Shown piece after piece: positions 1 to 664 of a DNA stretch of 664 nucleotides. Where the stretch lies: the NCBI RefSeq assembly GCF_003334255.1, contig NZ_QOWU01000200.1; one strand, written 5' to 3'. The translations under genes were made by a program, and so were the position numbers. The notes under the pieces were generated by a model that searched no databases, was not told the DNA's origin, and worked only from the letters and a program-made list of their open reading frames with translations. Each line of letters begins with the position of its first letter. The stretch's first letter is position 1. The stretch comes from Escherichia coli (GTDB taxonomy: Bacteria; Pseudomonadota; Gammaproteobacteria; Enterobacterales; Enterobacteriaceae).

Positions 1-664
1 GGGTGGTGAAGGGCGTGCGCTTCAGTCTGCGCCTGACCAGTGGAAGCGGTGAGAACAGCCGCCTGCTGACCACCGCCATCACCGCAGACACGGAGCACCG
101 TTTCAGTGGCCTGCCTCTCGGGGAATACACCCTGACGGTCAGGGCGATTAACAGCTATGGCCAGCAGGGCGAACCCGCCACCACCACGTTCCGGATTAAT
201 GCGCCTGCAGCACCGGCCACCATTGAGCTGACGCCGGGGTATTTTCAGATAACGGCGGTACCGCGTCTTGCGGTGTATGACCCGACGGTGCAGTTTGAGT
301 TCTGGTTTTCGGAGGCAAAAATTGCAGACGCCGCACAGGTGGAAACCTCTGCCCGTTATCTGGGGACCGGCAGTCAGTGGAGTGTCTCCGGTCCGCACAT
401 TAAGCCCGGAAAGGATTTCTGGTTTTATGTGCGCAGCGTCAACCTGGTGGGTAAATCTGCTTTTGTGGAAGCCAGTGGACGGGCGAGCAATGATGCTGCG
501 GGCTATCTGGAACTTTTCCGGGAAAAGATAGGAAAAACGCATCTGGCAGAGGCGCTGTGGGCAGAGATTGACAACAGTCAGCTGAAGGACGAGATGGCGG
601 AAATGCAGACCACCATCACAGAAACCCGCAATGAAATCACGCAGACGGTCAGTAAAACGCTGGA
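1..664 (+). CDS. J: Internal fragment (partial at both ends) of a lambdoid phage tail tip / host specificity protein J (central tail fibre). Codon phase: first complete codon at nt 3, last complete codon ends at nt 662.
   Basis: Seen in sequence: the frame starting at nt 3 has no stop in 220 codons, while frame +1 stops at nt 7-9 (TGA) and frame +2 at nt 50-52 (TGA); the minus strand has no ORF in the supplied track. Leu codons are 14/17 CTG, typical of expressed enterobacterial genes. From memory of phage lambda J (not searched): the translation closely matches its FN3-containing central region, e.g. '[38 protein letters not shown]', '[23 protein letters not shown]'. The FN3 signature [YF]-x-[LF]-x-V-R-[AS]-[IV]-N-x-x-G occurs twice, about 99 residues apart. 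Confidence 0.85.

Follow-up and report, generated by a model that had tools for sequence, protein, structure and literature searches.

Tandem FN3-like modules in an internal fragment of a lambda-type protein J from an Escherichia coli prophage

A similar short peptide signature occurs twice in the open reading frame of a 664-nt stretch of Escherichia coli DNA (hereafter, the window), and this raises the questions of which protein the window encodes, whether the two signatures mark two domains or one, and what such domains would do. An earlier note, made from the letters of the window, had proposed two tandem fibronectin type III (FN3)-like modules of a phage tail tip, and had suggested that modules of this kind decorate the tip and assist weak adhesion to the cell surface. 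Our analysis leads us to read the window as residues 645-864 of protein J of a lambda-like E. coli prophage, with the signatures on strand F and the FG loop of two consecutive domains and with a gate function as in lambda; we assign this reading a probability of roughly 0.93. In lambda these two domains, FNIII-1 and FNIII-2 of J, have already been described together with their structures. The segment belongs to the textbook picture of a lambda-type tail tip, of which homologous structures have been solved in the closed and in the receptor-bound state, and the value of the present result lies mainly in correct annotation.

The reading frame and its gene

Frame +3 is open from end to end across the window (nt 3-662; all features described below lie on this plus strand unless stated otherwise), with 220 codons and no stop. 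Four of the five remaining frames contain 7-12 stops each; the codon-aligned antisense frame is the exception, and we asked whether the real feature might be a protein encoded there. Frame -3 is without a stop over 220 codons, and in the near-identical prophage of E. coli DETEC-S792 (L001) a 215-aa ORF is present on the minus strand at L001 5895-6542. The antisense frame is open, however, because TTA, CTA and TCA codons are absent from the sense frame, whose GC3 is 66%. The antisense product is rich in Arg, Gly and Cys, has no PHROG match and no RefSeq annotation, and the homology of the sense product is overwhelming. We rejected the antisense ORF as a shadow ORF, and the odds that it encodes a protein appear to us vanishingly small.

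Frame +3 encodes part of the interior of a lambdoid tip attachment (host specificity) protein J, namely residues 645-864 out of 1157. At the DNA level the closest match is a prophage J gene from E. coli DETEC-S792, which is 99.8% identical to the window and differs from it by one synonymous change, at nt 641. The window corresponds to codons 645-864 of this 1157-codon gene, which lies at L001 4071-7544. Comparisons at the protein level lead to the same family: phmmer aligned the window protein with lambda gpJ over residues 647-838 of chain 8iyk_J (E 4.3e-74) and over residues 647-832 of chain 9e7m_Ja (E 1.5e-73), and the NCBIfam profile NF049904 (lambda_TipJ) was matched at positions 646-864 of 1163, with an E value of 1.5e-105 and a score of 353.8 bits. 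That score falls under the 1950-bit whole-protein cutoff because the window holds only 220 of about 1160 residues. The phmmer and lambda_TipJ matches bear out the guess, made in the earlier note, that the modules belong to the tail tip of a lambda phage. PHROG matches were to "central tail fiber J" and to tail fibre families.

The window has a match in 2079 of 5426 complete E. coli genomes, and among the matches listed the annotation is host specificity protein J or gpJ. The nearest phage records are Stx1a- and Stx2a-converting phages and other lambdoid phages, at a DNA identity of at most 95.9%. We note one entry under a different name: a 172-aa protein from E. coli O145:NM (P0016), 97% identical to the window protein, is called "homoserine acetyltransferase, partial" at NCBI, although it is evidently a J fragment that has been misannotated in the database.

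The genes around J in the DETEC-S792 prophage are arranged as in lambda, in the order tape measure, M, L, K-like C40 peptidase, I, J, lom and tail fibre. A Pfam search with the full-length J of this prophage identified FNIII-A_GpJ (residues 86-207), Phage-tail_3 (331-492), Ig_J (609-712), Ig_J_second (714-816), Phage_Tail_Tip (871-998) and Ig_GpJ_C (1027-1157). The full architecture of lambda J and the tail gene neighbourhood H-M-L-K-I-J-lom-stf are therefore both found with a gene that is 99.8% identical to the window. If the prophage that carries the window itself is defective, its J could go unexpressed.

Two side observations concern the surrounding DNA. The region 3' of J in DETEC-S792 (L001 7612-12389) encodes an outer membrane protein of the Lom family, a protein with a tail-fibre N-terminal domain, a DUF4376 protein and a protein with a YadA C-terminal domain, the last of which is an unusual-looking cargo or fibre gene. 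Within the window, a search of Rfam returned no match at E values up to 1, and we consider an inverted repeat to be due to chance because it is 75% complementary.

Two FN3-like modules and their signatures

Two separate, adjacent Ig-like domains were identified by Pfam in the window protein, with the boundary at aa 68/70. The first is Ig_J (PF24421) at nt 6-206, where aa 2-68 match model positions 38-104 of 104 with an E value of 2.7e-23; this is the C-terminal two thirds of FNIII-1. The second is Ig_J_second (PF24489) at nt 210-518, where aa 70-172 match model positions 2-104 of 105 with an E value of 1.4e-39, and this domain, FNIII-2, is complete. Between the domains, whose Pfam ends fall at aa 68 and aa 70, lies the Pro/Ala-rich linker NAPAAPAT, located at nt 198-221 exactly as the earlier note had it. 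Across 41 homologs, prolines P68 and P71 of the linker (P108 and P111 in the numbering of the structural model) are either invariant or conserved to 90% or more.

A first structure prediction with AlphaFold, made from the single sequence of the window, had a pLDDT of 44 and was discarded as unusable. For the model used here, AlphaFold was given an alignment of 41 sequences that included diverse relatives down to 28% identity. The query was J 605-864 of the DETEC-S792 prophage, which adds 40 upstream residues taken from the 99.8%-identical gene, such that a model residue number equals the window residue number plus 40. This model has a mean pLDDT of 85, and exceeds 90 over most of both modules. 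Along the chain it has seven strands (J 621-709), a Pro-rich linker, a second set of seven strands with one short helix (J 717-804), and long helices. The boundaries of FNIII-1 and FNIII-2 used throughout are taken from Pfam and from this model.

In FNIII-1 the model places strand C at nt 18-41, C' at 60-83, E at 93-113, F at 120-149 and G at 177-197. Five of the seven strands are present in the window, and the other two, A and B, fall before nt 1, as judged from Pfam on the full-length J and from the model. In FNIII-2, strand A is at nt 219-239, B at 246-266 and C at 291-311; a short helix at nt 330-350 separates C from C', and is followed by C' at 354-371, E at 378-389, F at 414-440 and G at 465-482. 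The pLDDT of FNIII-2 is 89-95 throughout. The proposal of two tandem FN3-like modules in nt 3-482 is thus upheld by the adjacent Ig_J and Ig_J_second domains and by the two seven-strand sandwiches of the model. Of the extent that was proposed, the end is accurate, as nt 482 is the end of strand G of the second module, but the start is not that of a domain, as the first module is cut by the beginning of the window. The 14-residue peptide with which the second module was said to begin is at nt 222-263, at IELTPG, and the aromatic-rich VQFEFWF is at nt 288-308, within that module as claimed.

When the model was compared with the PDB by Foldseek, the first hits were lambda gpJ chains (8iyk_F, 8k35_A, 8xci and 9e7m), with E values of 1e-25 to 1e-28. 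The comparison of a predicted structure with the lambda tail tip, proposed earlier as a check, accordingly gave beta-sandwiches with gpJ as the leading match. The best hits other than J were all tandem FN3 pairs, at E values of about 1e-8 over about 200 columns that span both modules: fibronectin 7-B-8, neogenin FN5-6, LAR FN1-2, NCAM FN1-2 and titin A77-A78, at identities of 11-18%.

The relation to the canonical FN3 family is less direct at the level of Pfam. The domain scan did find Ig-like domains, but they belong to the J-specific Ig_J families; the generic fn3 family (PF00041) gave an E value of 2.6 (aa 25-59) on the window, which is not significant, with no hit in the second module, and fn3 was absent among the hits on full-length J. 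Because the fn3 hit is not significant, the term "FN3-like" as used here is based on the fold and on a transitive link through other proteins. These are very large proteins of 1143-6589 aa (P0181, P0187, P0204, P0209 and others), which are significant phmmer hits to window aa 25-85 approximately (nt 75-257). In each of these giant repeat proteins, 7-45 separate stretches align with the linker and the C-terminal half of FNIII-1. Pfam recognises the repeats of P0204 as fn3, with E values of 4e-12 and 1.6e-10, and these repeats also give faint Ig_J hits with an E value of 0.03. Through these sequence matches, the giant proteins tie the J-specific Pfam family to fn3 transitively. Weak Pfam hits to Y_Y_Y, Cadherin, SpaA and InlK_D3 were set aside as general Ig-like similarity.

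The modules share with canonical fn3 the seven-strand sandwich, the tandem order and a short Pro-rich linker, as well as the signature L-x-x-G-x-Y-x-[LF]-x-V-x-A-x-N-x-x-G in the EF loop, strand F and the FG loop. They differ from it in the short helix added between C and C' of FNIII-2, and in their placement by Pfam in J-specific families.

No part of the FN3 fold is more conserved than strand F and the FG loop, with an aromatic residue that packs into the core, and both signatures lie here. Signature 1 (18 aa; nt 123-176) corresponds to model residues 81-98 and covers strand F and the FG loop of FNIII-1, where strand F comprises model residues 80-89 and strand G residues 99-105. Signature 2 (19 aa; nt 417-473) corresponds to model residues 179-197 and runs in FNIII-2 from strand F through the FG loop into the start of strand G; in this module strand F comprises residues 178-186 and strand G residues 195-200. 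The signatures therefore occupy equivalent positions of two domains, as had been proposed, rather than two sites within one. Both peptides were correctly recognised by the earlier note and both of its end points (nt 176 and 473) are right; the starts need correction, from 126 to 123 for the first, since 126 is the Y and the E lies 3 nt earlier, and from about 420 to 417 for the second. The spacing was given as about 99 residues, and the aligned cores, VRAIN at aa 46 and VRSVN at aa 143, are 97 residues apart.

The statement that both signatures fit the strict motif Y-x-[FL]-x-V-x-A-x-N-x-x-G-x-S does not hold for either one. Signature 1 has Q at the position of the final S, and in signature 2 the Y is replaced by F and the A by S. 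Against the FN3 consensus L..G.Y.[LF].V.A.N..G, module 1 is a full match up to the G, and module 2 matches with the Y replaced by F and the A by S. A relaxed motif, [YFW]x[FLYIV]xVx[AS]xNxxG, is matched by both. Among 30,000 composition-preserving shuffles of the 220-aa protein, none contained the relaxed motif twice and one contained it once; this motif was devised after the data had been seen, and the shuffle test speaks merely to the point that the pair of signatures is not an effect of composition. In the 41 diverse homologs, few positions reach 90% conservation, and residues of the signatures are among them. In module 1, L37, G40, Y42, V46 and G53 (model L77, G80, Y82, V86 and G93) are at least 90% conserved, and in module 2, G150 (model G190) is invariant and R144, N147, S152 and F154 (model R184, N187, S192 and F194) are at least 90% conserved.

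We considered whether the signatures are a chance or compositional likeness, in a single domain or in a fold other than FN3, so that the tandem arrangement would be an artefact of the motif. Several of the results above could be cited for this explanation: the strict motif fits neither copy, BLASTP of one half against the other is empty, the Pfam fn3 E value is 2.6, and the single-sequence AlphaFold run, with its pLDDT of 44, was uninformative. It is refuted nonetheless by the two separate Pfam domains, by the confident alignment-based model with its two sandwiches, and by the Foldseek hits to tandem FN3 pairs and to the solved lambda gpJ. The lone profile-profile alignment of the halves also puts motif on motif, and no shuffle in 30,000 produced two relaxed motifs. 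We regard a motif artefact as extremely improbable.

The two modules are divergent from each other in sequence. BLASTP of module 1 against module 2 gave no alignment, and hhalign gave one weak local alignment of 27 columns (E 0.007, probability 5%), in which the signature of one module is aligned with that of the other. Because BLASTP is empty and the hhalign result is weak, we conclude that the modules are not a recent duplication; their equivalence is shown by structure, in the predicted sandwiches. A DNA duplication of a module was likewise not seen in the window, where the repeats are two short pairs, one of 13 nt and one of 20 nt at 80% identity. The 13-nt direct repeat, GAGTTCTGGTTTT at nt 297-309 and GATTTCTGGTTTT at nt 414-426, encodes EFWF on strand C and DFWF on strand F of FNIII-2; probably the same codons were adopted convergently for an aromatic core motif, without any duplication.

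Comparison with lambda gpJ and a predicted tail-tube gate

Structures of lambda gpJ have been determined by cryo-EM (8IYK, 8K35, 8XCG/8XCI/8XCJ/8XCK and 9E7M) and allow a close comparison with the window. The position in the protein, the two Pfam domains, the Pro/Ala linker, the helix after FNIII-2, the overall architecture and the gene neighbourhood are all shared. FNIII-2 of the model superposes on the lambda construct gpJ713 (8xcj_F) with an rmsd of 1.4 A over 119 columns at 70% identity (Foldseek), and the first residue of that construct is the equivalent of the window linker, at APAAPS, as located by the phmmer alignment (PMC11101478). The window nevertheless represents another allele lineage than lambda, and identity to lambda varies along it: it is 58% in FNIII-1, 85% in the linker plus strands A-C of FNIII-2, and 67% in the remainder of FNIII-2.

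The window ends with the start of an alpha-helical shaft, which follows FNIII-2 at nt 495-659 (model helices 205-259, pLDDT 57-84). This part, aa 165-220, is not FN3 and lies beyond the nt 3-482 of the earlier note. Up to about aa 192, near where the phmmer alignment with lambda ends, this shaft is related to lambda shaft residues 809-840; identity is 37% in the first helix (aa 163-192) and 0% in the second helix segment. For the distal shaft, aa 193-220 (nt 579-662; pLDDT 57-79), no similarity to lambda gpJ 841-861 could be detected; in lambda, these are the residues that change from helix into beta-strand when the receptor is bound (PMC11101478). Other E. coli J variants (P0003 and P0011) share the distal shaft of the window at 93% identity.

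By homology to the solved lambda tail tip, we propose that the modules of the window J form part of a gate of the tail tube. J would be a trimer, in which the three FNIII pairs close the cone of the tube. Binding of an outer-membrane receptor by the C-terminal receptor-binding domain would twist the fibre, and this twist would cause the helical shaft to flip and partly refold. The three FNIII strings would then part and swing sideways on the long linker, and the hub domains would rotate outward, opening the tube for DNA ejection. In lambda, the gpJ domains were named FNIII-1 and FNIII-2, and the closed cone is enforced by a helix bundle (PMC10721106). When LamB is bound by the C-terminal domain, shaft residues 809-861 flip and in part become beta structure, the FNIII strings dissociate and come to lie perpendicular to the hub domains, and the hub rotates so that the tube opens (PMC11101478). 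Details of the trigger could differ in the lineage of the window, because identity to lambda is partial and the distal helix is unrelated.

A comparable arrangement is known from phage T5. The baseplate hub protein pb3 of T5 likewise has two consecutive FNIII domains at its C-terminal end, after four hub domains and on a long linker (comparison in PMC10721106), and in the T5 proteins pb3/pb4 the FNIII strings also separate and relocate after receptor binding (PMC10038345). The two systems differ in the closed state: in T5 the three strings are apart before infection and the tube is shut by a plug domain of pb3, whereas in a lambda-type J the FNIII trimer is itself the cone. There were no T5 chains among the best 50 Foldseek hits of our model.

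The description of such modules as decorating the tail tip needs revision in this light, for in lambda they are integral parts of the cone (PMC11101478). By analogy with lambda, the better-supported role for the FNIII modules of the window would be gating of the tail tube, rather than adhesion. The choice of receptor by J is set by its C-terminal domain, which lies outside the window. Because the window covers the gate region (the FN3 cone with the beginning of the shaft) but does not extend to the receptor-binding end, it is silent on host range.

Mosaic variation among J proteins

To describe how J varies around the window, we compared three pieces, FNIII-1, the distal part of FNIII-2 and the distal helix, between the window and four J proteins: P0011, P0014, P0028 and lambda J (L002). 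Identities to the window, given in that order of pieces, are 57%, 96% and 93% for P0011, which has a lambda-like FNIII-1 and is otherwise like the window. They are 95%, 65% and 54% for P0014, in which the distal FNIII-2 is lambda-like and the shaft is 54-60% identical, and 94%, 93% and 11% for P0028, in which both modules resemble those of the window and are joined to another shaft. For lambda the values are 58%, 67% and 0%. The J proteins of E. coli prophages combine variants of FNIII-1, of the distal half of FNIII-2 and of the shaft independently of one another, and this piecewise variation is the familiar mosaicism of lambdoid tail genes.

Between the variable pieces, nt 198-317 (the linker and strands A-C of FNIII-2) are 82-98% identical in P0011, P0014, P0028, lambda and three further relatives, and 70% identical in the most distant relative compared (P0146). 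From these identities, the segment looks like a recombination block.

The mosaic pattern is also the observation most favourable to a different view of the modules, in which they are mainly accessory adhesins with a secondary role in the cone. Weak binding of carbohydrate (LPS, capsule or peptidoglycan) would keep the phage near the cell surface, as with other Ig-like domains on phage particles, and discrete, independently assorting variants of FNIII-1 and of distal FNIII-2 would be expected if exposed surfaces were under diversifying pressure. Weak adhesion by the Ig-like modules of J has been raised in the literature, merely as a possibility (PMC10721106). The lambda structures argue against this role, however, in that the FNIII pairs are not free but packed together in the closed cone, and their movement is coupled to the opening of the tube (PMC11101478). 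The residues conserved in the 41 homologs are those of the core and of strand F and the FG loop, with no pointer to a conserved ligand site, and Pfam found no carbohydrate-binding family in either the window or full-length J. We consider it unlikely that adhesion is the main role of the modules, and prefer the gate described above.

A combined explanation, which starts from the unrelated distal shaft and the independent assortment of the pieces, would hold that J variants are functionally co-adapted, with shafts that differ in the mechanism by which they pass the receptor signal on to the FN3 gate, and that the variable FN3 surfaces in addition bind strain-specific surface glycans. This we judge more doubtful still; if true, glycan-binding FN3 surfaces would be a second, unrecognised determinant of host range in J.

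The block at nt 198-317 may also be of interest to those who build chimeric J proteins, as natural variants appear to recombine around it. In published engineering of gpJ, the exchange was made at lambda residue 964, well past the 3' end of the window (PMC11338833).
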